A DNA stretch of 54,569 nucleotides, the filler included, from Catajapyx aquilonaris (Eukaryota), in the NCBI GenBank assembly GCA_000934665.2. It is 2 parts of 2 records of this genome, joined end to end, with 100 filler letters (N's around TTAATTAATTAA, not from the genome) between each part and the next. Parts side by side here need not be neighbours in the genome. Positions count along the whole stretch, not along the records: positions 1 to 27,208 come from JYFJ02005090.1; 1 more part is not named here. One strand, 5' to 3'. Position numbers and translations under genes: made by a program. Each line of letters starts with the position of its first letter. The first letter of the stretch is position 1. The notes under the pieces are model-generated. The model was not told the origin of the DNA and searched no databases. It worked only from the letters and a program-made list of their open reading frames with translations. This document shows, one piece after another, positions 15 through 38,007 of this stretch.

Positions 15-635
15 ACCTTGTTAATTTACAGACGTAGAAAAGCTTATCATTGCAGTCTCGAGGGTACCACAACCTGTTGTGTCGAACTTCTCCGCATTGG
101 TATGTTTCACTTGCTGAAGATGAAGTCCTACCAGCCACCATATCATAATCTTTTTCGGTCCTATCGCTCCATTGCCAGCCATCACCCTCTTCCAAATTGT
201 GATACCCTATCCAAAGCTGCCAAAACATTTTACCTAAATGTGATTTAGAGGTATAATTTGCTGAAATTGTGGATTATACTAAGACTTATACCTGCAACAT
301 ATTTCTGCTCGTTGGTGTCGTGCAAACTAACCAGATCTGCTCTACTGTCCATGTCTTTACATTCTTGTCTTGCTTGTTGCCACGAGACACTCTTTTTCAA
401 TGTGTAGTAGCAGTAACCTTCGTACTTGTCCCAGTCTTTGGGGCAATATTGCTTCATTTCAGGCGAGGACTGTCGTTTTATCCGGGGATATTCAGGTGTC
501 GAGGTCACATTATAAGTGGGTAATGCACCTACTGCAAATATCATGTGCTATAAGACTTACAACTACAGTATAGACAACAAGCAATGTCGACTTACCTGAT
601 ATCCACAAGGTAATTAATATTCCTAAGAAGTTCAT
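15..635 (-). CDS. 5' part of a secreted C-type lectin domain gene (gene 1 of the cluster; continues beyond the left edge). Exons ~635-596, 531-292, 233-15
   Basis: Signal-like exon MNFLGILITLWIS with a gtaag donor, then ...YPRIKR (furin-type site), then CPKDWDKYEGYCYY...SWQQARQEC...ADLVSLH / KMFWQLWIG...WQWSD...C...C...YVC. GT-AG phase-1 introns. Confidence 0.85.
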
Positions 636-932
636 GATGAAGCTGAGTAAATATGGTGTGTAGCTCCATCAGTTGCATGCTGCAGACTAATGATATAAGT
701 TACGGGGGGGAAAAGGTCGCTGAAAACTCATATCAATAACACTGACCCGAACTCACAGCTCTTGGAAAGATCCTCCCAACATGATAGTGCACAATGTAAA
801 TTTATTCGCCCTTATTTATACAAGAGAGATAATGTTTTCGGGTAAAATTATAAGCATAAGTTGCATGCTGAAATATTTATAAATTAAACGAAATAAATGA
901 TGGGTTTTTTTTGGCATAATTCCAACTAACCA

Positions 933-945
933 GGGGAATTTCCCC
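933..945. promoter_or_regulatory. Candidate NF-kB/Rel binding site GGGGAATTTCCCC
   Basis: Matches GGGRNWYYCC and is palindromic about the central base. Lies ~300 bp upstream of the gene 1 ATG. Confidence 0.45.
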
Positions 946-1281
946 GGAGCATTTTATTTTGGCTAATTTCCAAACGGAAAAACCAAAATATCTAAAGGAG
1001 ATGAACCGTATCTGTCTGTTTATCTTAGTCTCCATGGCTGTAATTACGATGTCGCTTTAAACTATTTTTTTTGACTAAATTGTAGCCCCAGCAGAAATAA
1101 GTGCATGCCCGGCCATTTTAATCAAAGAAGAAAAAGATGCATAAAGTATTTTTTTATTATCAGATGCAAGGGCTCAAAAAAGATTTCTGCAAATTTTACA
1201 CTATTGTTATCCAATATTATTATGCAGACACACATAACCTTTGCCTGTAACGGATCTTGAAAATAATATACGCGGTATATG

Positions 1282-4200
1282 CTACTCTTCTTGGTTGGCT
1301 TCTGTCATGACGGCCACTATCCAATCCAGGTAGTCGACAACTCGAGTGAATATTGAGAACTCTCCTTTGGCGCAAGACCTGAAGTCATTAGCCAACATGT
1401 CGTAACTAAACACACCTTCCAGGTACCAACGTCGATCTGCTGCCAGAAACACTAGAGATCCTCCTTCGTTTGGACGACAGAAGTTGGAACCTTAAAAACA
1501 TATACAAGTTAATCAACTTTAAATCCAAGATTTTACACATTGAACATACCAGTTCGATATCCGGCACAAAAGGTCGTGTTGGTCACACCTTCAGAGAGTC
1601 CATAAAAATCTGCGCATTCTTCCTGAGTGGCTACAGGATACAGTTCCAGATACATGTCTGTGTGTATTTTCCTTTTTCGAAAACCCCAGCCTGAAACGAC
1701 TCCGACGTGTCCTGGAAACAACACCGAATACCGCTTGTCTCTTGGGAAACAAACGGGACGCACGTACGAATTAGTCTCGACCTTTTGCTTCAGTACCAGT
1801 ATGGCCAGGTTGTTCACACGTGTTATCGACTGGTATCCGTACTGACGATAGATTTTAGATACCTGTGGAAAAAAATATGTCATATTCATTACTTTTTTTT
1901 TTGAAACGTATATAACTATGCAGATTTTGTACAATGAATAACGTACGTCTCTGTACTGCACATGCTCATTTGGTTTTTGCAGATGTTGTGATGTTTCGCC
2001 CACCATTATTTTTAAGTGCCGGTCCTTTATCAAGGCCTCGTCGTACGAAGAGTTACCGACGCAATGGGCAGCTGTGAATATGAGTCGCATTGTGTCAAAA
2101 AAAAGAGGCTTCGAACAACCAAACTAATAGAGACGAATTTTTTTACAAGCGCAACCGAGTGCGCACCCACACCAGCGCAGCTCCATTGTTCTGACAACAG
2201 CGTAACTCGCCAGTGGCCACATTCACAGCCTCGGAAACGTCGCAAACGTCGGTCAGTTTGTTTCCACAAGTGTAGCGTTAGAAATAAGTGCTAGTAGGGC
2301 CTACACCCACCATCTATTCCCCCTATAATAATAGCCTTATTTTTTCGCCTCTGGAACGCTCCGGAAGGAGAACGGTCCCTGGTGAGTGCTGCCACCTTCT
2401 GATCGCGGCAGAAAGATGGAAGTCCCCCTGGTGAGTGCTGCCACCTTCTGATCACGGCACTAAATCATCAGGCGTTGCCAAATTTTGGCTACGGGTGCGC
2501 TAGTTATTGATAATTCCAACCGTGCACGCTGCGCAAACTGTAGTGCGCACTCGGTTCTGCTCGTATTTTAAAATTCATATAATAATTGTGTAGCTCTTTG
2601 TTCGAAACTTTTTTTTTTTGAGGTTTGATATAAGTAATACACAATCACTTTTCTTTTGTATTGTACCTGTAATGACCAACATGTCGCTTATGAGTGTTCC
2701 TCCGCATGTGTACTCCCACTCGTTATTCTCGTTCATTCGGTACACACCAGCATGCCATGGCCAGTGGCCTTGCTCTGCCTGTACATTTCTGTCAGATGCT
2801 CCTCTCAGCCATGAAGGCAAAATAACGCTCCTTCCACACACTGTGAAAATAATTGGTTCATTGTATTGAAAAAGTACTCACAATTATTTGCGATCGAGTA
2901 CTTACCAGGTAGACACGAGAGTGTCAGTTCCTCGGACCATGTTCCGTTTTCGGTGCATTGTATGACCTGCTGGTTCACAGCTCCTGTGGATTCGTAGTAT
3001 TCTGAGCATTGAAAGTGCATTGTTGTGCCTGCTGGAGAGTGTTCTCCGCACACTTCATCGTCGCCTTCTGTGTTGGTACAATGCACGTGTATTCCTCTCG
3101 TGCGGTACCGTACATGCGGACAGGTGTTCTCTCGAGGGAGATGGACTTCCACGTAGTTTCGTTCTTGTTTTTCTGTCAAACATAATTTTTGTCACATGGA
3201 AAAAATTCTTACATATTTTGAACGTACTTAGTGGAATTTCGCATATGAAGTGCGACTCTTCCTGGCAGTCTTGCTCCTTCCAAGTACCTAGAACTGCAAT
3301 TGCTCCACATGTTCCGTCAATTTCATGAGATTCGTCCCAATTTGAGTAAAGCAAAGGCTGGCCGCTGCTCCACTGCCATTTGCCTTCGACATTTTGAAGC
3401 CCTATCCATGCTTGGGTAACTAGCTTGCCTGCAATATTAAGCAATGTTAATTAACAGATCATAATATTAATTACAAAATGATTTCAGCTTTACTATGAAT
3501 GAAAGTGAGTTCAGCGTCTTGGTCTATTGATGGAAGGTCAGCTCGGCTGTCCATTTGTTTGCAGACTTCTCGAGCAGAGTTCCAACTGGCCTTGAATGTT
3601 GAGAAATAGTAGCATGAACTGTTCCTGTACTTCCAGTTCACCAGGCAAAGCTCTGACACTTCTGAAAACAATTATTTCAAAACCATATTTACGATAAATG
3701 CAGCAATTAGGTTGCAGCCCATATTAAGTATTCAATGATTGTGTCATACGCACATGATAGAAGATTTTGTATCAAAAGCAAAATCAGATTTTTTTTTTCA
3801 TAATCAAATTTTATTGAAAATATTACCTGCTCTGTACTTGCATGCGAAATGGTGCCGTTCTGAACAAGTAGCATTGATCACCTGATCATCCGTTTTACTG
3901 ACCAGCTGGCACTTATCATCTGAACTCATGACCCACATATTTTGTCGAAAATATTCTGGAAGTAATAAAGGATTCTTAGAATTGACCACATGTTATTTTA
4001 AGTGTAGTTTTTTAGTCACAATTATTTTAACTGTCGACGTACTTTCGAGGTTAGAATTTTCCTCTCTGTCGCCAATCATGGCCAAAACAGCATCATCATG
4101 AGTAAGTTTGCAAACATTTTCTGCTTCCTTCCATGTGGCTTGATAGTCTGACAGGTAGAAGCAAGAGTCTTCGTGGTACTGCCAGCCCTCAGGACACGGT

Positions 4201-7174
4201 CCTGTAAAAAAATATTAATATTTTAAATATCATGACTATCGAACATAATTTTAGGTTGAGTAGTAGGCTACATAATTAATGCCAGGGAGTATATACTAGG
4301 CTACATAAGAGGCGCAAACATTCGATTTCCGCGTCTCTCTGTTTGGGGCGTTTCCGAGGATGGCGGCCATCTTGAAGTGTGGGCAACGCCAACGAGGTAT
4401 AAATAGGGCACAGGCAAAAATAGGGTCCGCCATCTTTGATGGTTTTGGCGGCCATGGCAACTACACGGCAAGAACACGCACGAATCAAAGATGGCGGACC
4501 CTATTTTTGCCTGTGCCCTATTTATACCTCGTTGGCGTTCCCCACACTTCAAGATGGCCGCCAGCCTTGGCAACGGCCCCAAACAGAGCGACGCGGAAAT
4601 CAATGGCGCTGACCGAAGTTTGCGTCTCTTATGTAGTATATGCTCCCTGATTATGCAGACACCAAAATTATCTTGCCTGGCTTCAGTTGACAGACGTAGT
4701 TGAGCTCCATGTTGCAATATGTATTTTCCCAGCTACCAAAGTAAGTCAGCTGAGTGCATTGTCTCTTTTCCGTAGCAGATGGCTTGCCCTTCTTCCAGTT
4801 CGTGTAGTCCACATTGCTTCCATCGCTCCAGGTCCAGTTTTTATTTCCAGCCAAATTGCTCAGACCGATCCAATGTTTCCAATACATTTTGTCTTTTAAA
4901 ATATTTCAGTTGTATTCAGACTGTATATTCAGCAGAACATTCAGCTTACCTGTGAAATATTTCTGTTCTTCGTCAGTTGAAAGGCTGACGAGATGAGCTC
5001 TTCTGTCCATCGACTGACACTCTAGTTCAGCTTCACGCCAAGACGCCTTGTACTTTGACATGTGATAGCAAAAGTCTCCAAAAGAATTCCAGTCTGCAGG
5101 ACAGCTCTCGAAACCTATAACAGAAAATACTGGGTTATGATTATGATTATGATTTTAATTAAGGTGCTTGCCTGGATCTAATTTGCACGCGAATTTGAGT
5201 AGTCGCTGGCAATTTCGTGGTCTCCATCTTCCTGTAAGGAACAAGCTGGCACATTTTTCATCCTTTGAGTGAGGCTGGAGTCCAATCTTGTTGAACTCCA
5301 GAGGTGATGTACTGTCTGTCCAATTCCAGTGGTCGGTTTCCTGATCGTAGTTCAGGCCTAGCCACATCTCCCAATGCATTTGTTCTGATCAAAAAGAGGG
5401 CCAAAAAAAATATTATGTGCTCAAAATTGAACAGGGTGAAAATTAATATATACCTTTGAGAAAAGTGTCAAGTGACGAATCGTGCAAACTGATTAAGTCT
5501 GAGTACTCTTCTTTGGATTTGCAAGCTTCTCGAGCTCCACTCCATGTCGCTTTTTGTGGAGAGAAGTAGTAGCAAGTGTCTTCAAACAGTGTCCATCCTT
5601 CAGGGCAAGCATCTGAAAAAAATAATAATGTCAAAGCGAATGAAATGCGAAAAGAAATTGGTTCAAAATTTATACCTATCTGGGACATTTTGCAGGCGAA
5701 TTTAATTGCTTTCGAGCAATTAAGTCGGTTCCAAGTGCCTCTGTGTTCCAACATCGCACATCGGTAATCAACTTCGGGCCAATTATTATTATTATCTTCG
5801 GTCCAGCTGAGGAAGTTTGTGGGTGAAGAATCGCTCCATTCCCATTCATTTTTGTTGTGCAAGTTGCTCAAACCCAACCAAATATTCCATGACAATTTTC
5901 CTGCCAAATTAAAGTAAAACGTATATCAAAAAAATTGACAAACGTAGCAATTAGAACATAATTACCTGACAGGTAGTTATCTACACGTGGGCTATGCACA
6001 CTGGCCAAATCCGCGCCACTGATTAAATTCGCGCAAAATTCGCGAGCCAGATTCCAAGTAGTTTTTGATTCAGAAATGTGATAGCAATTTCCTAAGAACA
6101 ATTCAAAATTGTCTGGACACTCTTCTTCACCTTCTGTAAGAGAGAGTTTAATTTAATTAATTTTTGTTGTGGTAATCATTGAGTAGGCTATACTCACCTG
6201 TTGGTATTTGACACGCATACTGATATTCATTATCGCAATTTTGAGTTGTCCAATCACCAGACTGCATAAGTACAGCGCACTTATTACTATCAATTACATC
6301 TGTATGCCAGTTTCGATAATCAAGAATCGAATCATCGCTCCATGTCCATGACTCATTTGAATCCATCATTAATCCAATCCACACTCCTTGTTCCATCAAT
6401 TCTGCAATAATAATTTAAAAAAAACAATAATGAGAATAACCATAATCATAATCATAATTAGAGACTTGAAATCAGCTGCTGCTCTCTGGAATGATGAAGG
6501 CTGATTAGATCCGCATTCTTGTTCATCTGTTTGCATGTTTGTCTTGCTTCTTGCCAGGACGATTCGGTGTCCGATATGAAGTAGCACTGTCCATCATGCA
6601 TGTACCATGAATCGGGACAGAAAGGCTTCATTGTTGGCTGCTGAGGAGCTTCGGTGGTGGACAATATTAGGAGATGATCGCTCGTGCTTTCCACAGGTCC
6701 TGAATAAATATTTTTCATTCAGTGTTATAGATACAGCCCATGACACTTCCATCGCCTGAAGATCATGCGATTACCCTCTCTTGTACCGTACATGTTTTTT
6801 TTTCCTTTCTTACCGTGTGTTGTGGTGTCTCCAGAAAAGTTGGTTAGTTTGTGGAAGATGGATTTTTGATTAAGGAACAAATTGGAGGCCCGCTTACTCC
6901 GCCATCGTCGAGAAGCATGAAGATGGTGGCATGGCAACGCTGCTTCGTCCGATCCGTCCGGACAGTCCGCTTTACCATCGCAAACCTGTCCCATCTCAAT
7001 GCAGCCATTGTTCGCTTTGCAAGGGTAATCATCATGGCCACATTGTTGCGATAGCACCCCTAATAATTACATTTTTGTATACAGCGGGTTCACTTATTAC
7101 AAAATTATATAGCAATTATTACAAATTAACTTACCGCAAAGTGCTGTCCATAAACAGAATGTAACAAGACGCAT
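1282..7174 (-). CDS. Multi-exon secreted modular serine protease homolog, predicted inactive (gene 2): signal - LDLa - RSKR - 6 C-type lectin domains - 6-Cys Wonton/Sushi-like - protease domain
   Basis: Signal MRLVTFCLWTALC (ATG 7174). LDLa CGHDDYPC...CDGKADCPDGSDE. Six CTL exon pairs at ~6700-3230. CPHVRY...CSEYY...CTENGTWSEELTLSC. Protease motifs GHWPWHAG, CGGTLI, TAAHC, then NNLAIL in place of xDIAIL and CRPNEGG in place of CxGDSGG. Stop at 1282-1284. Confidence 0.88.
2095..2621. mobile_element. Degenerate MITE (family B) in a protease-domain intron of gene 2, with an internal ~34-bp direct repeat
   Basis: Inverted repeat aaccgagtgcgcac (2153-2166) / gtgcgcactcggtt (2543-2556) with imperfect outward extension. 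Internal sequence is similar to 8115-8562. ccctggtgagtgctgccaccttctgatc occurs twice in ~2378-2460. Confidence 0.6.
4283..4649. mobile_element. Palindromic MITE family A, copy 1 (intron of gene 2)
   Basis: CAGGGAG...CTCCCTG termini and ~150-bp inverted arms. Flanks attaatgc / attatgc form an imperfect TSD. Confidence 0.9.
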
Positions 7175-7692
7175 CGGTTTGGTTCAAAGTGTAACTTACT
7201 GTGAGTGATTGGAGATGGTTTTGGTGTAAATGTTACGATGATAGTGTGTGAGTTATTAGTAGTCAAGACCTCGACCACTCTTTTTTTTAAATGGTTCGAA
7301 AGGTCAGCATATCTTGCAACATGGATTTTATATCATTTCAAGTATTGAGATAACGAAATGAGCTTTTAAAAATTATGCATATCTTCATAACATGTAGTTA
7401 TGAGGAAATTCGACTATTTTTACGACTCATACTGTCATACCCAAAAAAATAGTTCAGGTTAAATACTATGCAGCCCATCACGTGAAGATTAGGAAAAATA
7501 GTTCGCAATAAATCACGCATTTACTGATAAAAATTATTATTCCAAGAACAGGGTACACAGGATAGTGGACATCATCCAATTTTTTATTCATTTTAATTTT
7601 CAAGATACAGACCTATTAGCTATAAAAGCAAGTCTTCCAAGATAACATTTTACATCAACGCAATTCAATTTCTCGGAAAGAGCAGATTGTGT

Positions 7693-10600
7693 TCAATAGT
7701 AGTCCTTATCTGCATCCGCCAATGAAGCTGCAATCCACTCCAGATATCTGTTGACCTTTGTGAAGACGCTGTACTCCTGTGTGTCACACGTGATCCCGTC
7801 TTCTATCACCAATCCGTAGCTGACCAGACCTTCCAAGTACCATCTGTTGTCAGACGCTGGGAACACCATCCCTCCACCACTGTCACCATTGCACACTCCA
7901 GTCCCTATATATATTCAAACACATGAAATGATAAGATATGTCCTTCTGTTTGTCCGGGGTGAGTCATAATTTCAGTTCAGCTAGCTCCAATTAGTACCAC
8001 TACCTCACGCAGAGTGGCAGTAATGTGCAAAGAGGGATGATGCGCCATCTATGACCGAAGTAAGGTACTAACGTAGACAGTGTTGCCAAGTTTGGCAAGG
8101 GCTTCACTATACAAATGAATTTTTTACCGAGCGCAACCTAATGCGCACCCGGACTTTTCGCCCCGCCCGTTTCGCCCCCGGACTTTTAGTCCCCGGCATA
8201 TTGGCCCCCGTGACAATTTCGCCCCCGTGACATATTCCACTTTGAAGCATTCGGCTGGGCATTTCTAGAGAAGTGACCTGGCCTTGCGTATAGCCTGCTG
8301 GCAACGCCGGGGGCAAAATTGTCACGGGGGCCAATATGCCGGGGGCTAAATGTCCGAGACCCCGCACCTACACTCGCGCTTTGGCGGAGCTTTGGAAACG
8401 TTGCAAACGTCGGCCATTTTGTTCTCTTCCAAGCGTAGCGTTGGAAATAAGTGCAGTTCTAATAAGGATATACCAATACATCCATACATCATTGTTAATG
8501 CCAACCGTGCATGCTGCGCGAACTGTGATGCGCAATCGGTTGATTTAGTAAAAAAAAATCATCTGAAGTTCTAAATAGTGTTTCTGACATACCGTTTCGA
8601 TACCCTGCGCAGTAGGTGAGTCCCTGCAGGCGACGTGGTATGCCGAATATTCTGTTGCACTCGTTGTCTTGAGCTACTGGATATGTTGCCATGTAAAGGT
8701 CGTTTGGAAGCTCGTTAGCTTCATTTACACCCCATCCGGCCACCTAATGAAACAGCAAAAAAAAATAATGAAAATGTCCATTGGCAGTTACCTGTGACAA
8801 TAACTTACGACTCCAACTTTCCCAGCGGACAAGAGCGAGTGTCGTCTTTCCTTCGGGTAGCAAATGGGTCGGACGTAATTAGTGATGGTGACAGGAGTCT
8901 TCAGAACTAGGATGGCAATGTCGTTTTCAATGGTTCCTGCATTGTATCCGTGATGTCTGTAAATTGCTTGAACCTGTACCGAGCAAAATTATTAAATCCT
9001 AAGTACAAAATTATGATCACCAAACGTATATACCTCACGAGATTGCACCAAGTTGTCATTTTCATCCAGACGTCGATAGTACTTTCCTAAGAACACCTTT
9101 AGACGTCTCTCCTGAAGAACAACGGCAGTGTTGCGATTGCGGACCACGCAATGAGCAGCTGTATTGTTGCGCAATTAGCTCACATATCTGATGTCGAAAT
9201 GTTGGCATTTATGTACCTGTAATGACGTATCTGTTGCCTAAGAGTGAACCTCCACAGTGGTACTGCCAGACATTCTTCTCGTCCTTTTTGTAGAGTCCAG
9301 CATGCCATGGCCACTGACCTCTGACTGCTTTCATTCCTCGATGCATCAGAGTCGTTGCTCTTGGTTTAAGCACACCAGACTTTCCACACACTACAGAGAA
9401 AAAAAGAGTGTCATAACTTCATCCGAAACATGTTTTTTTTGGAACATGCTGTACCTGATACACAGGATATGTCAAGATGAGCTGACCACACACCATTTTC
9501 CAAGCATGTGGCGTTCATTGTATCGACAAATGTTTCAGACTCGTATAATTCGGAGCATTGCAAATTAACTTGGGAGCCAGGAGGCATCCATTCGTTGCAA
9601 TTTATGGCGTCTCCTTCTGGACCGGTCAAGCACATCGATTCTGTGCCCTCCTTCTTCTCAATAGGAGGGCAAAGGTCATCACTTTGGAACGGGAATGATT
9701 CAGGAACAGAGTTGTCCGTTTGATCTGTGAGGAGAATATTTTATTTTGAACAATTGTGACGTCCCATTATATTTAGCTGGATGCTTAATTATTATTACCT
9801 AATGATATCTTGCACACAAAGTTGATCTGTTCAGAACACGGGAAATTGTTCCAGACTCCGTTATGAGATAGTTCAGTGCACATTTCTGAATCCAAATTGT
9901 TCGGTTCTCCTTCGTTCCAGTTCAGAAACGTGAGGCTGGAGCCATCACTCCATTTCCAGGATCTGGAATTGTTTTTGAGGCCTATCCATGCTCGAAGTGT
10001 CATTTTTTCTGTTGAATTTGAAAATTATTATATTAATTTTACAAGGAGGAAAGCTTATAGGGGGAAGATAGGTACTACATGTACCTGCAAATAATTGTTG
10101 TTCTTCCAGTGAATGTATGCTGAGCAGATCCGACGCCTTGTGTTTCTGGCTACATGCTTCCCTGGCCACGCTCCATGTGGCCTCGTAGTCTGACAGGTAG
10201 TAACAAATACCGGTCAAGAAAGTCCAACCTTCATCACACAAATCTGTAGAGAAAAATTTGGCAACAATTAACCTGCGAAATATTATGTACGATTGAATAG
10301 TATACCTCCAGGCATTTTGCATGCAAAATAGTGTTTTTCTGAGCAGGCTAGACTGCTCCATTTGACTGCATCGTTGTCGTCCGTTCCAGTATGGACCAAT
10401 GCTCCACAGGATTCGGGTCTGTCCTGTTCCTCAGGTTCGTTCAAATGCCAGTTGTAAAAAGTAGTTGGTGTCAAGTCACTCCATGTCCAATCTCCTGATG
10501 TTTCCTTTTCCAAACCAATCCAGACAGTTCCTCTCAGCAATTTACCTGTTTAAAAAAAAAAAGAAGTGAACTCTCAGTTATTAAAATTTGTACTGAAAAT

Positions 10601-12157
10601 GTGACTGATAGTCGTGTCAGGGAGCACATACTACATGAGAGACGCAAACTTCGGTCAGCGCCATTGATTTCCGCGTCGCTCTGTTTGGGGCCGTTGCCAA
10701 GGCTGGCGGCCATTTTGAAGTGGGGGCAACGCCAACGAGATATAAATAGGGTACAGGCAAAAATAGCGTCCGCCATCTTTGATGGTTTAAGGGGCAACAC
10801 GGCAAGAACACGCGCGAATCAAAGATGGCGGCCCCTATTTTTGCCTGCACCCTATTTATACCTCGTTGGCGTTTCCCCCACTTCAAAATGGCCGCCAGCC
10901 TTGGCAACGCCACAAACAGAGAGACGCGGAAATCGAATGTTTGCGCCTCTTATGTATAGTACATGCTCCCTGGTCGTGTACTGTACAATATTTCTATTAT
11001 TGCAAACTAACTTACGTGTGATGAATGAATTTTCTTGTGGCTTTCGGAAACTGACAAGATCCGCGTTTTTGTCGCTTTCTTTGCAAATTCTTCTGGCGTC
11101 ATCCCATCCTGCCTTGAATTCTGACAGATAGTAACAAGATCCCAAGAGATACTGCCATCCCAGAGGACACGGATCTGAATAAGTCGCATTATTATAGACG
11201 ACATGCTGCACACTTTAATATTCCTTACTTACCTGACACAACTTTGCACGCGAAATTTAGCTTAGTTTCGCACTTGATGTTGTTCCAGCTTCCGCTAAAA
11301 AGCAATTCAGCGCACTTGTCTTCTGATGACCTATGAGATGACCTTTCCTTCCAGCTGATAAAGTTCGTCGGAGTGTCATCGCTCCAGTCCCACTGACCTT
11401 TCCTCTCGATATCGTTCAGACCTATCCACATCCGCCAGAACATGTGGTCCGTTATATACCGAAGTTCCTGCTTGCTGTGGAGACACACCAGTTCAGACCT
11501 GGACTGAATCTCCTTGCACTTCTTCTTGGCAGTTTCCCAGGTCACTCTCTCCTCAGATATATGGTAGCAAAAGCCTTGTGACAAGCTCCAATCCTCAGGG
11601 CATTTTGGCGTCTCTAATATTTTAAAGCAAAAAATAATAATTTGTTTGATTGTTTATCCTGATGGCAACCTGAACTCACCTGGAGGGAATTTGCAGACGT
11701 ATTTGGCCTTTTTGAGGCAGTCTTGCGCCTGCCATTTTCCTGATTGCAACATGGCGGCACATGATTCTTCTTCACCGTGAGGTTCCACTTCCCATTGGCT
11801 TGTGTTCAATGGAGTTCCGTCTGTCCATACCCACATTTCCTTCTCAGTGTCGTGCTGAAGGCCTATCCAAACTTCCCAGTACATTGTACCTGCAGAGACA
11901 TACACAACAGTTAGGTACATGAATTATTATAATTGCAACAATATTACTTGACCTGTGAGGAATTCCTGCTCAGAAGATCTGTGTATGCTGACTAAGTCAG
12001 ACTTTTTGTCAATGGCTTTGCATGTCTCTCGAGAATCTTCCCATGACAGTTTACTGTCAGATATGTAGTAGCAAGCATCTTCATGGAACTTCCAACCCTC
12101 ATTGCACGGATCTGTAATTGAAAATAATTTCTCTCAATACTTCTGATTGGGGGGGTC

Positions 12158-12246
<89 letters not shown>

Positions 12247-14714
12247 TGTACCTTTTGGTCTCATTTTGCATGCGAATTTTAGCTCCTGGTTGCATCTCAG
12301 GTTCGTCCATTTTTCTGTGTAGCGCAAATCTGCGCATTGGTCTGTCGGAAGTGAGCTTTTCTCTGCCTCGTTCCAGTTGATAAAATTGGTCGGAGTTCCA
12401 TCACTCCATTCCCATAGTGTAGGATGCTCCAAGTTGTTCAGACCGAGCCATATTTGCCAGTACATTTTGCCTCAAATTTATATTTAAAAAAAAAGATGAG
12501 CGTGAATTGCATAAAAATGACATGAAGTGTTTATTTACCAGCGAAATATGATTGTTGTAGTTTTCCATGAATGCTTGCAAGTTCAGCATCTTCATGGAGC
12601 TGCTTGCATCTTTCTCTCGCTGATGTCCAGGACGACTTCTCATTAGACACATAGTAGCAGCTTCCCATATAAAACTCCCAATGTTCAGGGCAGACAGGGC
12701 TTTCTGATAATTATGAACAGTAATATCAGGGAGCATATTACTGCATAAGAGGCGCAAACATTCGATTTCCGCGTCTCTCTGTTTGGGGCGTTGCCAAGGC
12801 TGGCGGCCATTTGGAAGTGTGGGGAACGCCAACGAGATATAAATAGGGTACAGGCAAAAATAGGGTCCGCCATCTTTGATTCGCGCGTGTTCTTGCCGTG
12901 TAGTTGCCATGGCCGCCACAATCATCAAAGATGGCGGACCCTATTATTGCCTGTACCCTATTTATACCTCGCTGGCGTTCCCCACACTTCAAGATGGCCG
13001 CCAGACTTGGCAACGGTCCCAAACAGCGAACATCAAAGGCACCGACAGAAGTTTGCGCCTCTTATGCTCCCTGGTAAATATGCATAGGCAAATTTTGTTA
13101 AGTTTAAAAATATTTATGTAATGCACCTGAAGGTAGTTGGCAGATGTAATTCAGCTTATCCGAGCAATCTCGACTGTTCCATCGTTCAGACTGAACCAGT
13201 TCGACACACTTCTTTTCTTCAGACGATTCATCCCTACCCCAGTTCTCCCAATCCAGTTCAGTCCCATCGCTCCAGAACCAATCACTTTCATTGTCAGATC
13301 TCTCCAGACCGATCCACAGTTGCCAAAACATTTTTTCTGTGACAATTAATTGTATATTATCCTGAAGGCTCATATTAATTGGAGTAATTTCAGTCTATAA
13401 TTACGTGTCAGGTAATCCTGTTCCCTTGAACTTCTAAGGCTGACCAGATCCGCTCCTTTGTCCGTTTGTTTGCAAGCTTGTCTGGCAGTCTGCCACGTGG
13501 CTCTGAAGTCTGATATGTAATAGCAATAATCCTCAAACAGTTCCCAGTCATTAGGACAAGACAATTGTGTCTTGATCACAGGTATTCTTGTAGGCAGGAC
13601 AGTCACAGTTTCGGTATTGTTGTCATAATATTCAGTAGATATATCCGATTCGGTTAAATTAAGAGGAGTTAATTCGGTGACACGTGGAATTAAATCAGGT
13701 GTTTGCGCAGTGGTGGTTTCAGTTCCGATTATTTTAGCAGTGGTGATTTCAGTTCCGATTATTTTAGCAGTGGTGATTTCAGTTCCGATTATTTTAACTG
13801 TGGTGATCACTGTGGTTCTTTCTGGAAATTACATGAAATTATTGCTACACTCTAAGAAATGTCCGGGTTAAATGTATTTATCCCGGAAAAAGATCACTTG
13901 TGTCATGGTTATTTAACCCGGACATTTCTTAGAGTGTATACACTCTAACAAATGTCCGGGTTAATAACCATGACTAAGAAATGTCCGGGTTAAATAACCA
14001 TGACTAAGAAATGTCCGGGTTAAATAACCATGACACAAGTGATCTTTTTTCCGGGATAAATACATTTAACCCGGACATTTCTTAGAGTGTATAGTAATAA
14101 GAAGTACGTACAATAAAACCTTAACTTACTTGTGATTGCAGGCAGTGTAGGCTTGTTAGTGGTTGTTGTTGTGGTTGTTGGACGTGGCTTGATGCAATTG
14201 GGTATCGGAGGATCCCATTCCTTCTTTTTGCACGTGGAGACATGGCTTCCGTCCAATTCGTACCCATACTTGCAATAGAATTCAATCACTAGTCCTTCCA
14301 AAGCGATTCCGATTTTGGACTTGACACAACGCAACTTGACATTATCCGATAGTCTTTTGCAGTCTGGGATGACATAAAATCCATGCCTTGGATCGCTAGG
14401 CAGCATGCAGTGGTCGAATATTGAAATGTCCGGAATCAATCCTCTTTTGGGACGCCTAATATAATAATTGCAGGCTGTCTCGTCTGACAGGTCTGGACAG
14501 TCTGGCTCATGGTCGCAAACCCACTCTGAGGGTATGCAACCCGTCACATTTTGGCACGCGAAATTTGGTCCGCATATTGAGGTGTTGGCAGATGCAAAAT
14601 CTGGAAAAAAAATGTGCAGAAATAATGCAAGGAAACTAATTTTGAACCGCTGCACTTACCAGCAATTACTCCACTAATTATTAGAAGGGCCAAAATGTTC
14701 CATTTGGACATCAT
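7693..14714 (-). CDS. Multi-exon secreted ModSP/HP14-like serine protease (gene 3): signal - LDLa - RPKR - Sushi - Thr-rich stalk - 6 C-type lectin domains - Wonton-like - protease with intact triad
   Basis: Signal [18 protein letters not shown] (ATG 14714). LDLa CGPNFAC...[13 protein letters not shown]. Sushi [10 protein letters not shown]...[10 protein letters not shown]...WDPPIPNC. Six CTLs at ~13560-9800. Zymogen junction RATTL-MHRG. Triad motifs [23 protein letters not shown]. Stop at 7693. Confidence 0.92.
8115..8562. mobile_element. MITE family B copy with a nested GC-rich inverted-repeat element (~8150-8356), in the last intron of gene 3
   Basis: Ends and body resemble 2132-2578 (gaatttttt..gcgcaacc..gcgcaccc; ggaaacgt.gcaaacgtcgg; ccaaccgtgca.gctgcgc). 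Inner ~49-bp inverted repeat at 8179-8227 / 8308-8356. Confidence 0.65.
10618..10972. mobile_element. Palindromic MITE family A, copy 2 (intron of gene 3)
   Basis: CAGGGAG...CTCCCTG termini with a perfect 7-bp TSD gtcgtgt. Confidence 0.92.
12160..12244. repeat. (TA)n microsatellite in an intron of gene 3
   Basis: Uninterrupted TA dinucleotide run of ~85 bp. Confidence 0.98.
12727..13073. mobile_element. Palindromic MITE family A, copy 3 (intron of gene 3)
   Basis: CAGGGAG...CTCCCTG termini. Flanks gtaatat / gtaaatat form a TSD with a 1-nt indel. Confidence 0.9.
13708..13807 (-). repeat. Coding 30-bp tandem repeat (~3.3 units) encoding a ([10 protein letters not shown])n mucin-like stalk in gene 3
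   Basis: cagtggtgatttcagttccgattattttag repeated in frame within an exon. Confidence 0.9.
13848..14089. mobile_element. Two abutting, oppositely oriented tiny MITEs (13848-13936 and 13941-14089) with CACTCTAA...TTAGAGTG termini flanked by TA; CACTA/EnSpm-like
   Basis: TIR cactctaagaaatgtccgggttaaat. TA flanks each copy. The second copy has an internal ~30-bp unit amplified three times. Confidence 0.75.
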
Positions 14715-14922
14715 AACAGAGCAGGCCGTTACAAGCTGAAATACAACGTAGAGTGTGGGGAATATTGGATCATGATCGGTTACTACATGACCCTTGCAGG
14801 AGATGATAACCCGGGCTGTGACCGTGACCTCAAATATTTATCAAGTAATGAAACAGGAAGAAACTTGTTTATTTTTAATATTTCGGGATTTTTTTATAAT
14901 CTGCACATTTCGTGTGTTGTAA

Positions 14923-17900
14923 CTACAACAAATTTGCAGTCGCCTCTGACAGAACACCGTTGATCCAATCCAGATAACTGCTGACTCTTGTAAACACGCT
15001 GTATTCAGTACTCTTGCATGACACCAGGTCATCCAAGACGTCACCAAAGCTGACCAGTCCTTCAAGATACCATCTCCTGTCTGCTGCTGGAAAGACCATT
15101 CCTCCACCGCTGTCTCCATGACAAACACTCGTGCCTGGAGAAGAAAAAAAATATTAGTTTCTCCATACATTACAGTCAGTGATTTTTGGTAAGAAAAAAT
15201 ATACCATTCCGATATCCTGCGCAGTAGGTGGTGTCCTCCATTTCCAAAATGAGTCCAAATGTGTCTATACATTCTTGCTTTGGAGCCACTGGAAAAGTTG
15301 CCATGAACAGGTCGTTTGGTTGCTCGTTTCGTTCATTAGTGCCCCATCCGACAACCTAACAATTAATTTACAAACAATTTAATTGTACTGCTTAATAATA
15401 ATTTCATTAAACAGAAACTATTCATACCACTCCAACTTTTCCAGGAAATACGAGGGAATGGTGAGCTTCTCTTGGGACACATATTGGTCTCACGTAGTTG
15501 GTGATTTCGACTGGTGCTTTCAGGACTATTATGGCTATGTCTGACTCAATAGTCTCGGGGTTGTACCGATAGTGAAGGTAAATTTTCAGTACCTCGCGTT
15601 GTTGAACAAACAGGTCGTTTTCGTCCAGATGTCTATAGTATTTTCCAAGAAACACTTTCATGCGTCTTGTTTCTATAGGTTCAGCAACATTTGGATTCTT
15701 CAGAACGCAATGGGCGGCTGTAAAAGTGCTACAATAAATGTCACATTTTCAGGGCATCATAATGATTATTATGTATACCTGTTATTATAAACCGATTGCC
15801 CAAAAGTGATCCTCCGCAATGATATTCCCATTTCATCTTTTCGTTTCGTCTGTACAAACCAGCATGCCATGGCCATTGGCCTCTTGTGGCCTTGATTCCT
15901 CGATGCATAAGTGTCTGAAGCTTAGGCTTCAGCTGACTTGATGTTCCACACACTGAAGATATATGCAGAAGTATATAAATTATTTTTTTTCATTCATACC
16001 TTGGTTGTTCATACCTGGTTGACATGTAATTTCTGGTTCGCTGGACCAAACACCGTCGTCCAAACATGTCAAATTATGCGTCTGGATACTTCCAACTTCT
16101 TCGTATAGATCTGCGCATTGCAACAGAACCTCTGTTCCTATAGGCAGGAAATTATTATGACACGAAACCTGTTCGTCTGTGTCGTCTCCAGAAGGTGTGA
16201 AACACAATGCTTCGGTTCCAATCATCCGTTTTATTGGAGGACACTGCGGCAGATCATTTGGCGAAAGGAAGCCCAAATCAGGCGCGTTCTTATCCTCTGA
16301 AAATTGTACACAAAATATTATTGGCTACGTACAGGTGTAATTATAGGAAATGTATACCTAGTGAAAGCTTGCATAAAAACGATTTGGTGTCGCTGCATGA
16401 GTCTGTCTTCCATGAAGAATCGGTTAGAGTTGTGAGTGCCGCACATAATTTGGAAGAGTTGCGGTCATACTGTTCTTCCTCCCAGCCTGCAAAGGTCACT
16501 CTTGACCCATCACTCCAGACCCATTTGTCCTGACCTGTCGTGCTAGCTCCAGTCCATATTTCCAGCACAATCGTCTCTGCAATGACATAATAAATTACAT
16601 AGCTCACTTTGTTTTAAAAAACTTTGCAATGAAATTATCCATTACTTGCAATGTAGTTGTGCTCTTCAATGCTCTCTAAACTAATGAGATCCGATCTAGG
16701 TTCCATCTGTTTGCAAAATTCTCTTGCAGATTGCCAAGTCGATTGGAAATCAGAGAGATAGTAACAATGAGACTCGCGGGATTCCCATCCTTCAGGACAA
16801 ATGTTGGAATAATCTGATAATAAATATGTAATATTATAGTTCGTTTAATAACCTTTCAGATCGGAACATTTTTTTAACCTGAGCGAAATTTGCAGGAGAA
16901 ATAATTGAATTGGTCGCATTGCATCGATTGCCATAAGACTGTGTCGTTATTGTCGCTTCTTGAGTGGACCATTGCGGTGCATCTGTGCCTTTTGTCTGTT
17001 ATTGGCTGGTTCATATCCCAATTGATGAAGATCTGTTCAGTTCCATCGCTCCAGCGCCATTCTCCAGGATTGTACAGTTGCTGGAAGCCTATCCATATAC
17101 GTGGACGGAGAAGCTTTCCTTTGAATGAAAAATTGTGCGTTTACACATTCAGATAATAATAACATCAGTAGTACACACAACGCACTTGAGATGTAATCAG
17201 ATTCATCTTTAGAGCTGATGCTAGCCAGATCAGCATCAGATTCCAGATCCTTGCAAAAATTTCGCGATTCCTTCCACGACATCTTAGTAGACGACATTCG
17301 ATAGCACGAGTTTAGCATGAATGTCCAGCCGACAGGACACGGCTCTGGAATATATACGCACAACAATAATATTTGCGCGAAAATTTTGCAAACAATTTTC
17401 ACACCTGGCTGGACTTTGCAGACAAAGTTGATTTCACTGTCGCATTTGATGCTGTTCCAATGTCCGGTTGCGAATAATTCGGCGCATTCTTCAGATTTAC
17501 GATTTGTTGGATGTCCTGCCTTCCAGTTGATGAAGTTTGTTTGTGTATCGTCGCTCCATTCCCATTCACCTTTGCTGACCAGGTCATTCAGGCCTATCCA
17601 CACTCTCCAGTACATTTTCTCTGCAAAAAATTTTAACAAGTCAAAAAGAAAGGTCAGGATTTCTTTGTAAGTACTTACCAGTAAGATATCGCTGTTCTTC
17701 AAAGCTGTGGATGCTGACCAGATCTGCTCTCATGTCCATCTCTGTGCAGGTCTTTCTAGCTACTGACCAACTGACCTTTTCTTGTGACAAAAAGTAGCAG
17801 GCGCCTAGGTACAACTGCCATTGGTCAGGACACTCAGGTAAATCTGTCCCCCCAAAAAATTAGTTAGTCCTGAACGACACTGTTATATACGTTTGCTCAA

Positions 17901-20639
17901 CATACCAGGCTGGAACTTGCAGACAAACTTATGTTCCTCGTGACATTGTTTGGCCTTCCATTTTCCTGACTGAAGAAGCTGGACGCATGTTTGGTCAGAG
18001 TCTCGATCTTCAGTGTCCCATTGGGAAAAGTCTAAATAAGAATCGTCTGACCAAAGCCATTTGTCGCGTTGGCCATCGAATTCCAGGCCTATCCAAATTT
18101 CCCAATACATTTTGTCTGGAAAAAAAATTATGGACGTAAATGAATAAATTCAGGGCAATGATCACAAATTATTAGCAAATTATGTTATTACCAGTAATGA
18201 ATGATTGTTCGGACGCTTTGTGAACACTCATCAAATCAGACTTCTTATCGATGGTTCTGCAGGTCTCGAGAGCTTCCTTCCATGTAGCTTGATAATCGGA
18301 AATGTAATAGCAGCTTCCATCGTGATATTTCCATCCATCTTTGCACGGATCTGTAATATTTCAATCAGGTTTTATTTCTTTGCAAAACTGGGTAAAAATT
18401 CGCGTACCTGTTGGCTTGACTTTGCATGCGAATTTGTACTCTTCGTTGCATTTTCGATTGTTCCATGTCTCAGTGTGGGTCAACTGAGCGCATCTATTTT
18501 CCAGCATGTTTTCAGGATACGATTGTTCCCAGCTGATAAAATTTAGGAGTGATCCGTCGCTCCATTTCCATTCCCGAATTTTCTCCAGATTGTTGAATCC
18601 TATCCACATTTCCCAGAACAGCTTTCCTATACACACATAAAAAATTCCAGGTTAGTTCCGTATTTTTTAAAAACAAAATTAATAAGTGATTTACTCTGTA
18701 AATAGTTCTGCTCTTCCTCGGAGTGAATACTGGCCAAGTTTGAATCCGGATCTAATGATAGACAAGTGCGATGAGCTTTTCGCCAGGAAACTCTGTCGCT
18801 GGAGATGTAGTAGCAGAAATCGCCAAATCTCTCCCAATTGTTGCTGCATGTTGAGTTTTCTGAGGGGGACACATTTTGGCAAAAACACAGCTCACTTTGA
18901 ATTATTTATCAAATAAATTCAGTGCAAATTCTCCAAACGTTTTGGATCGTGTTTATATAATTAATGAAAATCTTTCAAGTGAACGTACCTGAGGGTGATT
19001 TGCAAACGAATCTGTGTTCTTCTGAGCAGTCGTGACTTTTCCACAAGTTTGAATGCAAAAGTTCTCCGCAAAATTCGCTCTCTCCTGCTTGAGTCATTCT
19101 CCACTTGAAATAGTCAACGTTGGTTCCATCGCTCCAGCCCCATTCTCCAGTCTGATTCAAGTCGTGCAGTCCTATCCACAGCTGCCAAAACATTTTGCCT
19201 GGAATTTTGGCACACGTCTAATTTATTATTATTTCTGTCAATTATATATTGGCAAGAAGGTTACACTGACCTGTGACGAATTTCATTTCCTGAGCATCGT
19301 GTATGCTGACCAAATCTGCCCTTTGGTCAGTCTTCCTGCAAAACTGTCTTGCTTCTTGCCAGGTCGAGACTTCGTCTGAAACATAGTAGCACAAGTCCTC
19401 GTGGAATTCCCATCCTTTAGGACAGCTTTTTCGGGTCGAGGGTGGCAATAATGTTGTCGTAGGGGTCGCTTCAGTTGTGTTCCAAATAGTGTCGTTTCCT
19501 TCGTTGATGACGTACGTCGACAATGTTGCGTTTAGAGTGTCCTCATCAGTCGGTGTTGAAATCGTGGGAGATGCTACAAAAATTAGTGGGTATCATACAG
19601 GGTGTTTCGTGTAGGTAAAACTTACTGTTTGTGTCCTCAGGAAATGTACTTGTAGTCGGTAATGTTGTGATTACTTCTATGGTGGGCACTGTAGTTGTTG
19701 TTGTTGTGGTCATCGCTATGGTGGGCACTGTAGTAGTTGTTGTTGTAGTGACAGGTTTGGGATTGTACTTGACACATTTTGGAAGACCAGGTTTCCACTT
19801 TCCTTTCGTACAGGTGACCTTATCGCTTCCTACCAGTGTGTATCCTTCCTTGCAGAAATACTCGATCTCAAGTCCTTCCAGTCCCAACCCTATGTCAATC
19901 TTCCAGCAAGATGGTTTGCTGGCAGCGGTCACCAGTCCCCTGCACATCGGAATCTGGTAGTTTCCATGGTTCGGTTCTTTCGGAAGCTTGCAATAAAGCC
20001 CGATGTCTGGAACTGGAAGGTCTGGAAGGAATCTTCTTTTCCTCTCTTGTCCGCATTGGGTTTCGTCCGATCCATCCGGACAGTCCCAGATTCCGTCGCA
20101 GATTCTAGTGGACGGAATGCAGGCGATTCCAGATTCGGGGCAGGGAAGTTGACCTTTCCATGAGCATATGTCAGCTGGAACTGTTGCAGAATCTGCAATT
20201 CGGTTTCAAAATTGTAATGAAACTGATGATGTATACATAACAATATAAATTCCCATGACGCACAACGTATAACTACTAATCAACAAAGTAAATCGTAAAA
20301 AAATATTCGGTTCAAAAGGTCAAGGATTCATCAATACAGCAACAGTTGCTATTCTAACTCCTTTTGATACAGTCATGTACTACATCACCCACAGGACCCA
20401 ATATTAATTAATATTAATTAACATGTACACATACTTTTCAATTCAATAACAAACAATGCCATGTAGCTCCAAAAATAACATTTGACAGAACCACTCAATA
20501 GATATTTTTCTAAACTCCCCTACGAATATGAGTAATTATTTGCTTTTTTTGTGAGCCTCTGTCAGTCCTAATATCATTACTTACCTACATGGACGGCGAT
20601 GCAAATGACAAGTATCAGGTACGGCTTTGGACGGGACAT
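14923..20639 (-). CDS. Multi-exon secreted ModSP/HP14-like serine protease (gene 4): signal - LDLa - RKRR - Sushi - Thr-rich stalk - 6 C-type lectin domains - Wonton-like - protease with intact triad
   Basis: Signal-like exon MSRPKPYLILVICIAVHV (ATG 20639). LDLa CSWKGQLPC...CDGIWDCPDGSDETQC. Sushi CKLPKEPNHG...FCKEGYTLVG...WKPGLPKC. Six CTL exon pairs at ~19430-16360. Junction KLQTL-MHRG. Triad motifs TAAHC, ESDIAII, GTSVCHGDSGG. Stop at 14923-14925. Confidence 0.92.
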
Positions 20640-21220
20640 GATGCTTACATTTCTCGTCGCTATCTGCACGGAGACTGCCTTTTTCATGTGCAGTCATAGA
20701 GAGAGCCAATCTGGCCCAGTTCCAATTTTTTTTCTCTAAGAACTCTTATCACTGAAGGGAAGTTCAAGATTTTTATTCGAGTGTGGTTTTATAGACTGCG
20801 GTCACCAAGAGAGGATATGAACTGTAATACAAAGCTGATAGCCCATTTCATTGAACATTATTTATTGCATGGACTAAAGTATACAACACAAATTATTGTG
20901 CAAGTAGTAAGTTCACGGCTTATTTAGTAATGCATAATGTCGGAAATATTTTATTTATTAACAGAGTGTGTACACAGTATGCAAATGCAAATATCCAAAA
21001 AATATTCATGTACTTTTTATTGCATTTTTATGTGAGCAAAATAAAACATTAGTTCAGTCAGTGAATTAAATTATAAAGAATACAAATTGATTTCTCTTGT
21101 TGAAATAACAACGGTCTTGAATAATTTTTGCAATCATGACGAGTACATTAATATGCAATTATTTCTCTTGCTCCAGCACCAGTCAATAGAACATATCCCC
21201 CTTTATATCATGGCATTATG

Positions 21221-36300: not shown

Positions 36301-38007
36301 CGTGCTTTGCGGGATGCAAAATCACGAATTATCTCCTCCTTGTCCAGAGTTTTTGCTAATTCCCGTTCGATGGATAACATGGCAGGCCCATTCAGTCTCT
36401 CCTGCTGTGTGGTGCTTCTTAAGTAGTCCTTTATTAACTTCATGATGGAGAAACTTCTTTCCCCTGAGGCTACTGTTACTGGTATGGTCAGGAGAATGCG
36501 ATATGCAACAATCACATTAGGGTAAGAGTCACCGATTGGTACGAGAAACTGCAGAGCCAGGAGAGCGGTTGTCATGTCAGGGGGAACAGCGCACCGGAAC
36601 TGTTTCACTTCCATAAAGAGTTCGACGCCATCCACGTCCTGCTGCTCACCATCTTCCAGCAAGCGTGCGAAGTCCATGCAATGCCTCCCAAGTTCTTTGT
36701 CTGGCAGATCCTTCAGTTTGCTAGGATTGAATAAAAACCCGAAACAGTCCGAGAATGCATGTAATTCTTCGAACTTTGTCTGCATCGACTCCAAGGCGGT
36801 GGCGATGATTGGCAAGAAGTAAGTATCCTTAAAAGCATCTTCTGGAGACTGACAATGTGGTGGCCGTCCTGCCGAGCGGAGGTGTGCTAAGCAATCCCGC
36901 TCAATTTGAATTGGTAGGCTACGGCCAAGTGACGGATGCCGCGGTGTGGGCGATGGCATGAAAACATTCCAGTTTCCTTCCAAGTAGCCAGGCGCGTAAT
37001 ATTCGTCAATTCCTGATGGCGCTTTGCACCAAGATTTACACTCCCCACAGGCACGGCGCGGGGCCCCTCTGGGCATGGGGCCCGGGGCGGGCGCCCCGCT
37101 CGCCCCGCCCTGGCGACGGCCCTGTCCTATGCACAGAGTGCTCCAACCTTTGAAAGCATCACTTCCGCTCCAAGCAAGTATCAAGGCAGAATGAGACCAT
37201 TACTAACCAGTAGGGTGGTTCATCGTTTTCCAAGTCAGTCTTAATTTCCTCTGGCATCCGCAACGAAACAAACCCAGGTTCTTCATCCCATACCTGAAAT
37301 TGGTAGTTTGATGTTAGACATTCATCATTAAATTGGGATCACCAAAGTGTAGTGAATTCTCCATTTTTACATGCAGTACTTGAAGAATTTGTTCAAATTG
37401 TCAAGTACTAAAATCAGTCATGATATCCCTTCTGTGCAGTTCCACAAAACTATATAAAAAGTGCCAGTTTTCTCTAACAAAAATTTATGCATCATCTACT
37501 TCTATGATGTGATTGATTAGGTTCAACTAATGAGCCATGTCCTGAGTGTGATTGCCATATACTGTAATAGGATAGGCCTATCACAATTATCTCATCAGAT
37601 TATCTTTGTGGTGGAATTACCCTGATGAAGTTGAGCTCTACCACCCTAATTGATAACCCATTTTCCCCATTGTGCAATTGAGAATAAAACGTTTTGACAT
37701 TTATTGCATAAGTCTATCTCCTTAATATTGTGCCTTATTAACTTTGACGTAATCATTGTACCTCAAATTCCTCTATATCAGGGATTTTAAGGATGAGGAG
37801 GATGTCAAACTCAAGTGCATCCATGACCCTGAGCCCATCACCAACACTGCCCGAGACGTAGGGCATGTGGAAGAGCTCGTTGAAGAGGTCGTCTGCTTTC
37901 CTCATCTCCGGGATAAAGGTCTTGAAGATCAGCCTGGTCACCAGTTCCCTGTTCCGCTCCATCTCCTCTTCCGGCACTCGAACTTCCTGCACCCAAATGT
38001 CACCCAT
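33364..38007 (-). CDS. cGAS-like receptor (cGLR; Mab-21 nucleotidyltransferase family), ~360 aa. Exons 38007-37762, 37293-37208, 35987-35855, 35778-35632, 35240-35091, 34140-34015, 33552-33364
   Basis: All junctions are GT-AG and in phase. Motifs SGSVGDGLRVMDALEFDILLIL, PGFV, YLSVVKFHRWIQSVVD, GPAMTL, SIDLVPA, VVPKP, WRLSFPGAERDLL, LKSYSIKTLFMW, LPYFWNPGLNLF. The reading frame is open upstream to an acceptor near 38048, so the N-terminus may be longer. Confidence 0.92.
34296..34430. mobile_element. Possible pogo/Tigger-type terminal remnant in a cGLR intron
   Basis: TA-CAGTTGACTCCGGATATAAC followed by repeated (ta/tg)taacag motifs. No second terminus was found. Confidence 0.3.
36133..37124 (-). 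mobile_element. Internally deleted hAT DNA transposon (Tip100/ZMYM1-like) in intron 2 of the cGLR
   Basis: 16-bp TIR CAGGGCCGTCGCCAGG and perfect 8-bp TSD tcctatgc. Retains the transposase C-terminus and dimerization domain (YPNVIVAYRILLTIPVTVASGERSFSIMKLIKDYLRST...FASRKARR). Confidence 0.95.

Follow-up and report, generated by a model that had tools for sequence, protein, structure and literature searches.

The minus strand of a 54,569-nucleotide stretch of DNA from Catajapyx aquilonaris (assembly GCA_000934665.2; two parts joined by 100 filler letters, hereafter 'the window') carries three complete genes in tandem (A, B and C), each with 19 exons and an open frame in frame-consistent splice-site models, as well as the beginning of a fourth (D). 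Genes A and B encode a signal peptide, an LDLa domain, a Sushi domain, a Thr-rich stalk, six C-type lectin-like domains (CTLDs), a six-cysteine (6-Cys) Sushi variant and an S1 protease, all on one chain. The reading that we favour, at a probability of roughly 0.55, is that these genes form a sensor-protease family that arose by insertion into a ModSP-type gene, with A and B encoding active zymogens and C a catalytically dead binder.

The domain content was established with Pfam (cut-off E≤0.01) on the 51 minus-strand stop-to-stop open reading frames (ORFs) of positions 1-20205. Lectin_C was matched on 30 ORFs, Trypsin on eight, Sushi on five and Ldl_recept_a on three, while six ORFs had no Pfam family and one matched solely UL45, a C-type-lectin-like family. 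Because E-values reach down to 2e-19 and the arrays resemble each other position by position, a chance origin of this content is excluded. The plan that had been claimed for A and B (genes 3 and 4 of the original prediction, which was made from the sequence alone) is thus borne out by Pfam and by the open 19-exon models, as is that of C (its gene 2), which has the A/B plan minus the first Sushi, its LDLa exon matching Ldl_recept_a only, and a shorter stalk. The median intron is 65-68 bases long and all junctions are GT-AG, apart from two GC-AG introns of gene C that begin at 5171 and 4676 (minus) with donors (CAG/GCAAG) of otherwise strong consensus, where the paralogues have GT. Phase 1 introns predominate (17 of 18 in A, 17 of 18 in C and 16 of 18 in B) and include every module-bounding intron. 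A six-frame scan with our own CTLD and protease profiles gave no further CTLD or protease exon better than E=0.1 in the rest of the window or on the plus strand.

Support for joint transcription comes from X5, a sequencing run of unrecorded kind that holds 35% of the sampled words and whose contigs were aligned to the window. We take X5 to be RNA-derived because its contigs lie on the window without introns, and its pieces end exactly at exon borders (e.g. 16015-16296, 9455-9724 and 2906-3172). The 6-Cys Sushi exon of gene A (E15) occupies record positions 868-1149 of a 1891-nt contig and that of gene B (E14) positions 885-1154 of a 2015-nt contig, both as the exon lengths predict, with 742 and 861 nt extending upstream. 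In gene C the corresponding exon (E15) occupies positions 2008-2274 of a 3591-nt contig and E18 and E19 follow; the 2007 nt upstream, which are not itemised among the pieces listed, equal exactly the summed length of exons 4-14. These agreements between exon sums and contig positions place CTLD, Sushi and protease exons on one assembled transcript, against the earlier caveat that lectin and protease exons might belong to separate mRNAs; for the CTLD exons, continuity is given by length arithmetic, and the X5 contigs are assemblies rather than single molecules, which limits what they say about one mRNA. Gene C has the steadiest X5 cover of the three, a depth that cannot rank the genes. The transcript contig of gene C ends at 787 and the start codon of gene D follows at 635, only ∼150 bases further downstream, so that the tandem genes are very tightly packed. 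From this ATG, gene D has a signal exon built as in A-C, then a short stalk and one CTLD, without LDLa, and after base 15, at a GTAAGT donor of phase 1, it passes out of the window. It had been predicted (as gene 1) to start directly with a C-type lectin domain; the CTLD is indeed its first domain, but signal exon and stalk precede it. No protease was seen for gene D within the window, at whose edge the gene is cut off.

With six CTLDs in each of A, B and C and one in D, the count is 19, in line with the 'at least 19' originally claimed. All 19 keep the six cysteines of the long-form CTLD, and Lectin_C matches, alignment and PDB matches agree on the fold. Two domains are unusual: C-CTLD5 is truncated to 97 aa and has lost the central WIGL...WSD part, and B-CTLD4 (11233-11613) is a single exon that has lost the intron splitting every other CTLD. 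Identity between CTLDs at the same position of A and B (A1-B1 to A6-B6) is 40-51%, compared to mostly 30-40% for other pairs, which indicates that the six-domain array is older than the A/B duplication. The array has diverged more than the protease (65% identity between A and B), and a protein identity of 40-50% implies that synonymous sites are saturated. Among solved sequences, those closest to the CTLDs come from the arrays of DEC-205, the macrophage mannose receptor (MRC1), PLA2R and Endo180; with one CTLD as query, the match to DEC-205 has a value of 2.8e-56 when the domains of DEC-205 are summed, and that to MRC1 one of 1.2e-35. Ca-dependent carbohydrate-binding C-type lectins have EPN or QPD together with WND as canonical motifs, and no CTLD of the window has this combination. 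The original prediction saw recognition and initiator protease fused in one chain: CTLDs and protease do share a chain, but 18 of the 19 CTLDs are without the canonical sugar/Ca motifs, so that 'lectin' recognition is at most inferred, and we use 'lectin' here as a fold assignment made from sequence.

The protease domains of A and B are 65% identical (48% for the whole proteins), while C shares 42-46% with them (38% overall). A and B keep His57, Asp102, Asp194 and Ser195, their pocket is of a non-trypsin, non-Asp189 kind (Ser or Gly189, Val190, Gly216 and Ser226), and counting back from the conserved Gly-x-x-Pro-Trp predicts a new N-terminus, Met-His-Arg-Gly, after Leu. Both are thus predicted to be zymogens with an intact triad and a chymoelastase-like pocket, in which the Leu-Met activation bond fits the predicted specificity of the enzyme itself. 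Alignment of gene C gives a different picture: His57 is kept, but the substitutions Asp102Asn, Asp194Asn and Ser195Glu and loss of the activation site make it a pseudoprotease and, by its residues, a serine protease homologue (an S1 fold with an incomplete catalytic triad). Being catalytically dead, C cannot be an initiator protease, and the role claimed for it has to be given up; like other arthropod serine-protease homologues, it is probably a non-enzymatic binder, cofactor or decoy. When the protease exon was searched against PDB sequences, thrombin came out as the top match (1.6e-9), which is uninformative for family.

To place the proteases, a quick IQ-TREE run was made on 63 rows (three from the window and 60 others), with support from the Shimodaira-Hasegawa-like approximate likelihood ratio test (SH-aLRT) only. 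In this tree the proteases of A, B and C group together (SH-aLRT 100), and a branch with the same support separates them and 32 'Leu-type' rows (ModSP-named, gd-type and springtail) from the remaining 28 rows (factor C, Sushi-array and ordinary trypsin-like proteases). Residue patterns agree with this split: the factor C group has P1 Phe, Asp189 and Trp215, while the ModSP/gd/springtail side shares with A and B a P1 Leu, Ser, Gly or Asn at residue 189, and Val190. The cysteine spacing of the 6-Cys module before the protease is common to A, B, C, springtail proteins, odonate and Carabus ModSP-named proteins and an LDLa-rich protease, whereas factor C has a plain Sushi in its place; we read this module as the 'Wonton'. 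LDLa, Sushi and Wonton are described, in passages of PMC7215089, as modules of initiating proteases, and part of the text of PMC10732536 presents ModSP as an enzyme of chymoelastase-like type that favours Leu at P1 and autoactivates with PGRP-SA/GNBP1 or GNBP3. At the sequence level A and B have this P1 Leu and chymoelastase character and gene C does not. By sequence, then, A and B resemble ModSP-type enzymes and are not ModSP orthologues. The 'ModSP-like' label first given to the genes holds for the LDLa, the 6-Cys module, the P1 Leu and the non-Asp189 pocket of A and B, and fails for the number of LDLa domains and for grouping with named ModSPs.

With the 96-aa protease exon of gene A as query, HMMER matched 845 of 1.84 billion representatives at E≤1e-3, and the best 150 of these matches reach at most 48% identity. 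Pfam on 30 of the matches, and source names for 10, sort them into three groups: proteins of factor C type, with Sushi, LCCL and one CTLD; proteases with a Sushi array; and LDLa/Sushi proteases, among them a 'modular serine protease' of Carabus and springtail proteins automatically named 'Limulus clotting factor C'. By BLASTP, the best relative is CAG7819457.1 (P0055) of the springtail Allacma fusca, a 569-aa Sushi and trypsin protein without CTLD that is 40.7% identical to gene A over 364 aa (6-Cys Sushi and protease) and whose Sushi can also be aligned with the N-terminal one of A. In a search from P0055, Lectin_C was absent among the 120 of 321 matches listed, and of 269 fetched relatives scanned with our own CTLD profile, seven had one CTLD and none had two or more. 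The layout of six CTLDs and a protease is thus not found among the database relatives fetched. Nor did we find a description of a multi-CTLD protease in the literature searched (supplements aside), and the passages at hand of the Orchesella cincta genome paper report only lineage-specific C-type lectin clusters (PMC4987106). Other searches were weak: the window's own proteins were not found in the protein collection searched at 169-2000 aa, the LDLa-Sushi exon gave one unrelated LDLa match, and the protease exon gave 30 candidates, none scored. The architecture had been put forward as unrecognised; this holds for the multi-CTLD plan, but one-chain lectin-protease proteins as such are already known (factor C, with one CTLD, and Aedes CLSP2).

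We propose that a ModSP-type gene with the plan LDLa-Sushi-6-Cys Sushi-S1 protease gained a mucin-like stalk and a six-CTLD array by an insertion that separated its N-terminal Sushi from its 6-Cys Sushi. Phase-1 exon modules would have been used for this, with gene duplication afterwards. From the anatomy of the chains and the ModSP literature we infer how they might work: the CTLD array, and possibly the LDLa too, would bind a repetitive extracellular surface or partner; binding would cluster zymogens, allowing mutual cleavage at the Leu-Met bond; and the freed protease, still disulfide-linked to the sensor chain, would cut a downstream zymogen at Leu, as ModSP and HP14 do. Gene C, with its binding modules kept and catalysis lost, may then act without enzyme activity. 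A bolder version, which we put forward tentatively and would not bet on, is a single-chain 'lectin pathway' in which the six-CTLD array triggers its own ModSP-type protease by trans-autoactivation at Leu-Met on a target surface, C tunes or blocks the response, and the family is diversifying in this lineage by tandem duplication.

The same architecture could also serve a non-immune job, as a protease of development, egg, cuticle/moult or haemolymph clotting whose CTLD array anchors it to matrix or glycoproteins, in the manner of gd-type or ovochymase-like enzymes. Proteases of gd type share the P1 Leu, Ser189/Val190 and the tree side of A and B, most CTLDs are without sugar-binding motifs, and the mannose-receptor-family arrays that are nearest to them (DEC-205, MRC1, PLA2R) consist mostly of protein binders. 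However, tandem duplication, CTLDs that diverge faster than the protease (40-51% versus 65% between A and B) and the presence of a dead paralogue would sooner be expected in a family for immune recognition, and no GD_N domain was found by Pfam on the 51 ORFs; we regard a non-immune role as rather unlikely. Less probable still is that the CTLDs are not the trigger and only space, multimerise or localise the enzyme, while the LDLa/Sushi end docks on separate GNBP/PGRP-type receptors, as in ModSP. The LDLa domains of A, B and C all keep the acidic Ca-cage motif in their protein sequences, canonical lectin motifs are almost absent, and the LDLa domains of HP14 bind betaGRP2, as stated in passages of PMC7215089; yet six position-conserved CTLDs are kept in three paralogues, the dead one included, and gene D has a CTLD but no LDLa. 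That the long genes are a model-building artefact, in which lectin and protease genes stand head to tail with separate mRNAs, is very unlikely: near-zero RNA cover over the 5' half of gene A, and contig pieces seen only in part from contigs that can in principle chimerise between paralogues, would fit it, but in all three genes the 19 exons read through with neither a stop nor a frame break, the Sushi-protease part has neither a signal exon nor an ATG-initiated start ahead of it, and the upstream reach of the 3591-, 2015- and 1891-nt contigs (2007, 861 and 742 nt) fits the lengths of the CTLD exons.

Several observations weigh against the sensor-protease family that we prefer. The position of the window clade within the Leu-type side is weak (SH-aLRT 83), and the approximately unbiased (AU) test rejects (p=0.0045) a clade made up solely of the window proteases and the four ModSP-named rows, the latter being a group that was named after the tree was seen; the expectation that the protease would fall within the ModSP clade is hence not borne out, although the 100% split does not separate the two. 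The tree itself is of a quick type that lacks Drosophila ModSP, Manduca HP14 and MASP. Each gene has one LDLa (Pfam Ldl_recept_a), as opposed to four to five in ModSP/HP14, and Met at P1', as in A and B, occurs in just one of the 60 other rows (P0071). Classical sugar binding is unlikely for most CTLDs, judging by their motifs, because 18 of 19 are without EPN or QPD and none has WND: EPN occurs only in B-CTLD6, where it is paired with WNN, and QPD in none. In X5, continuity over the CTLD exons depends on the length arithmetic among the pieces listed, depth over the 5' exons of gene A is 0-2, and 19376-20699 is without cover.

Arthropod immune cascades are thought to start with separate receptors that recruit a modular protease. 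Were one chain to bring along a multi-domain binding array of its own, it would amount to a natural experiment in sensor-initiator fusion, a factor C-like idea on a ModSP-type scaffold. Active A and B beside a dead C would offer a directly testable system for the triggering and restraint of a cascade, and the phase-1 modules a clear case of exon shuffling that makes a new receptor-enzyme. The weight of this is limited, in that lectin-protease fusions as such are known and function is here read from sequence.

The coordinates of the family are given in Table 1. The stalk comprises 99 aa with 37% Thr in gene A and 109 aa with 30% Thr in gene B, where a 10-residue Thr-rich unit stands in three tandem copies (13600-13830).

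Table 1. Coordinates of the lectin-protease genes and their exon-level features in the window
Feature	Position	Strand	Details
Gene A coding region	20639-14926	-	19 exons, 1387 aa; splice-site model; X5 record 11 coordinates reproduced by exon sums; contig reaches 14883
Gene A exon 1, signal peptide	20585-20639	-	then phase-1 GTAAGT donor; X5 depth 0
Gene A exon 2, LDLa, Sushi and start of Thr-rich stalk	19626-20192	-	Pfam Ldl_recept_a 7e-7, Sushi 6e-8
Gene A remaining stalk and six CTLDs	16358-19573	-	two exons per CTLD, all introns phase 1
Gene A 6-Cys Sushi variant (Wonton-like) exon	16015-16296	-	Pfam Sushi 2e-6; exact exon in X5 contig; Atlas Sushi 0.95
Gene A S1 protease, 4 exons	14926-15952	-	His57, Asp102, Ser195 intact; predicted activation site Leu/Met-His-Arg-Gly
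Gene B coding region	14714-7696	-	19 exons, 1383 aa; splice-site model; X5 record 10 reproduced by exon sums; contig reaches 7636
Gene B LDLa-Sushi-stalk exon	14130-14600	-	Pfam Ldl_recept_a 5e-10, Sushi 6e-5
Gene B stalk and six CTLDs	9799-13821	-	CTLD4 one exon, 11233-11613; CTLD6, 9799-10243, sole EPN domain
Gene B 6-Cys Sushi variant exon	9455-9724	-	Pfam Sushi 3e-3; exact exon in X5 contig; Cys spacing
Gene B S1 protease, 5 exons	7696-9390	-	triad intact; predicted Leu/Met activation site
Gene C coding region	7174-1285	-	19 exons, 1204 aa; splice-site model; X5 record 9 reproduced by exon sums; contig reaches 787
Gene C LDLa exon, no Sushi after	6814-7059	-	Pfam Ldl_recept_a 2e-9 only; donor may be 6814 or 6775
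Gene C six CTLDs	3228-6699	-	CTLD5 (3827-4201) truncated
Gene C 6-Cys Sushi variant exon	2906-3172	-	Pfam Sushi 1.4e-5; exact exon in X5 contig
Gene C protease-like domain	1285-2840	-	Asp102Asn, Asp194Asn, Ser195Glu; activation site absent
Gene D, partial	635-15	-	signal exon 596-635; stalk and CTLD half 292-531; CTLD half 15-233; continues past window start

The window holds animal DNA in which introns are short, and all features of the lectin-protease family lie on its minus strand. The long introns of B and C, and other places, contain a very high-copy short repeat of ∼330-450 bases without Pfam match (4279-4732, 8107-8558, 10499-10949, 12404-13087 as two inverted copies, 22843-23154 and 42525-43060), whose bins have a DNA-run word depth of 1,000-35,000 compared to ∼35 elsewhere. 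A gene B intron (12149-12252) holds a long (TA/ATATAT)n microsatellite, at which contigs of both runs break. Elsewhere on the minus strand, 21669-23988 and 24856-26926 are two tandem ionotropic-glutamate-receptor-like genes (Pfam Lig_chan-Glu_bd 2e-11 and 3e-12; Lig_chan 2.5e-4), and the open frame at 36285-37199 (305 aa) contains the C-terminal dimerisation domain of a hAT transposase (Pfam, 3.8e-12).

Among known systems, the best BLASTP relatives of the window genes are the springtail LDLa/Sushi proteases named 'Limulus clotting factor C' (P0055; Folsomia candida P0146; Orchesella cincta ODM97244.1, P0044), with 35-41% identity over the 6-Cys Sushi and protease; their P1 is Leu in P0055 and P0146 and His in P0044 (our own alignment), and they differ in their length of 540-913 aa and the lack of a CTLD. 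For ModSP-type proteins, with Carabus GLV43967.1 (P0022) and the odonate 'modular serine protease-like' P0186 and P0189 as proxies for Drosophila ModSP, Manduca HP14 and Tenebrio MSP, the likeness lies in the N-terminal LDLa and Sushi, the 6-Cys module directly before the protease, P1 Leu, Ser/Gly189, Val190 and the tree side. The window genes differ from them in the single LDLa (SP41-43 and HP14-type proteins have four to five, according to passages of PMC7215089), the mucin stalk, the six inserted CTLDs, the P1' Met and the lack of nesting with named ModSPs. Factor C (P0114 from Tachypleus, P0100 from Centruroides) likewise has sensor and protease on one chain, with CTLD and Sushi ahead of an S1 protease, but with a single CTLD, an LCCL domain, five Sushi domains, P1 Phe, Asp189 and Trp215, and on the other side of the 100% split; an identity of the window genes with factor C was rejected on the absence of LCCL (Pfam), the residue differences and the opposite tree side. 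Aedes aegypti CLSP2 also joins an elastase-like protease and a C-type lectin domain in a secreted chain, but it is without LDLa, Sushi and CTLD array; in the portions available of PMC4461313 it has an N-terminal elastase-like protease and one C-terminal QPD lectin that binds fungal glucan, and acts as a negative modulator. The receptors of the mannose-receptor family (DEC-205, MRC1, PLA2R) share the tandem CTLD array, with domains mostly without sugar sites, but have no protease. As to MASP, C1r and C1s, CUB and EGF had no match on any of the 51 ORFs (Pfam), and their plan (CUB-EGF-CUB-CCP-CCP-SP) is not that of the window genes. What these genes would share with the vertebrate lectin pathway (MBL or ficolin with MASP) is the logic of lectin-triggered protease autoactivation, there divided between a lectin and a protease on separate chains.

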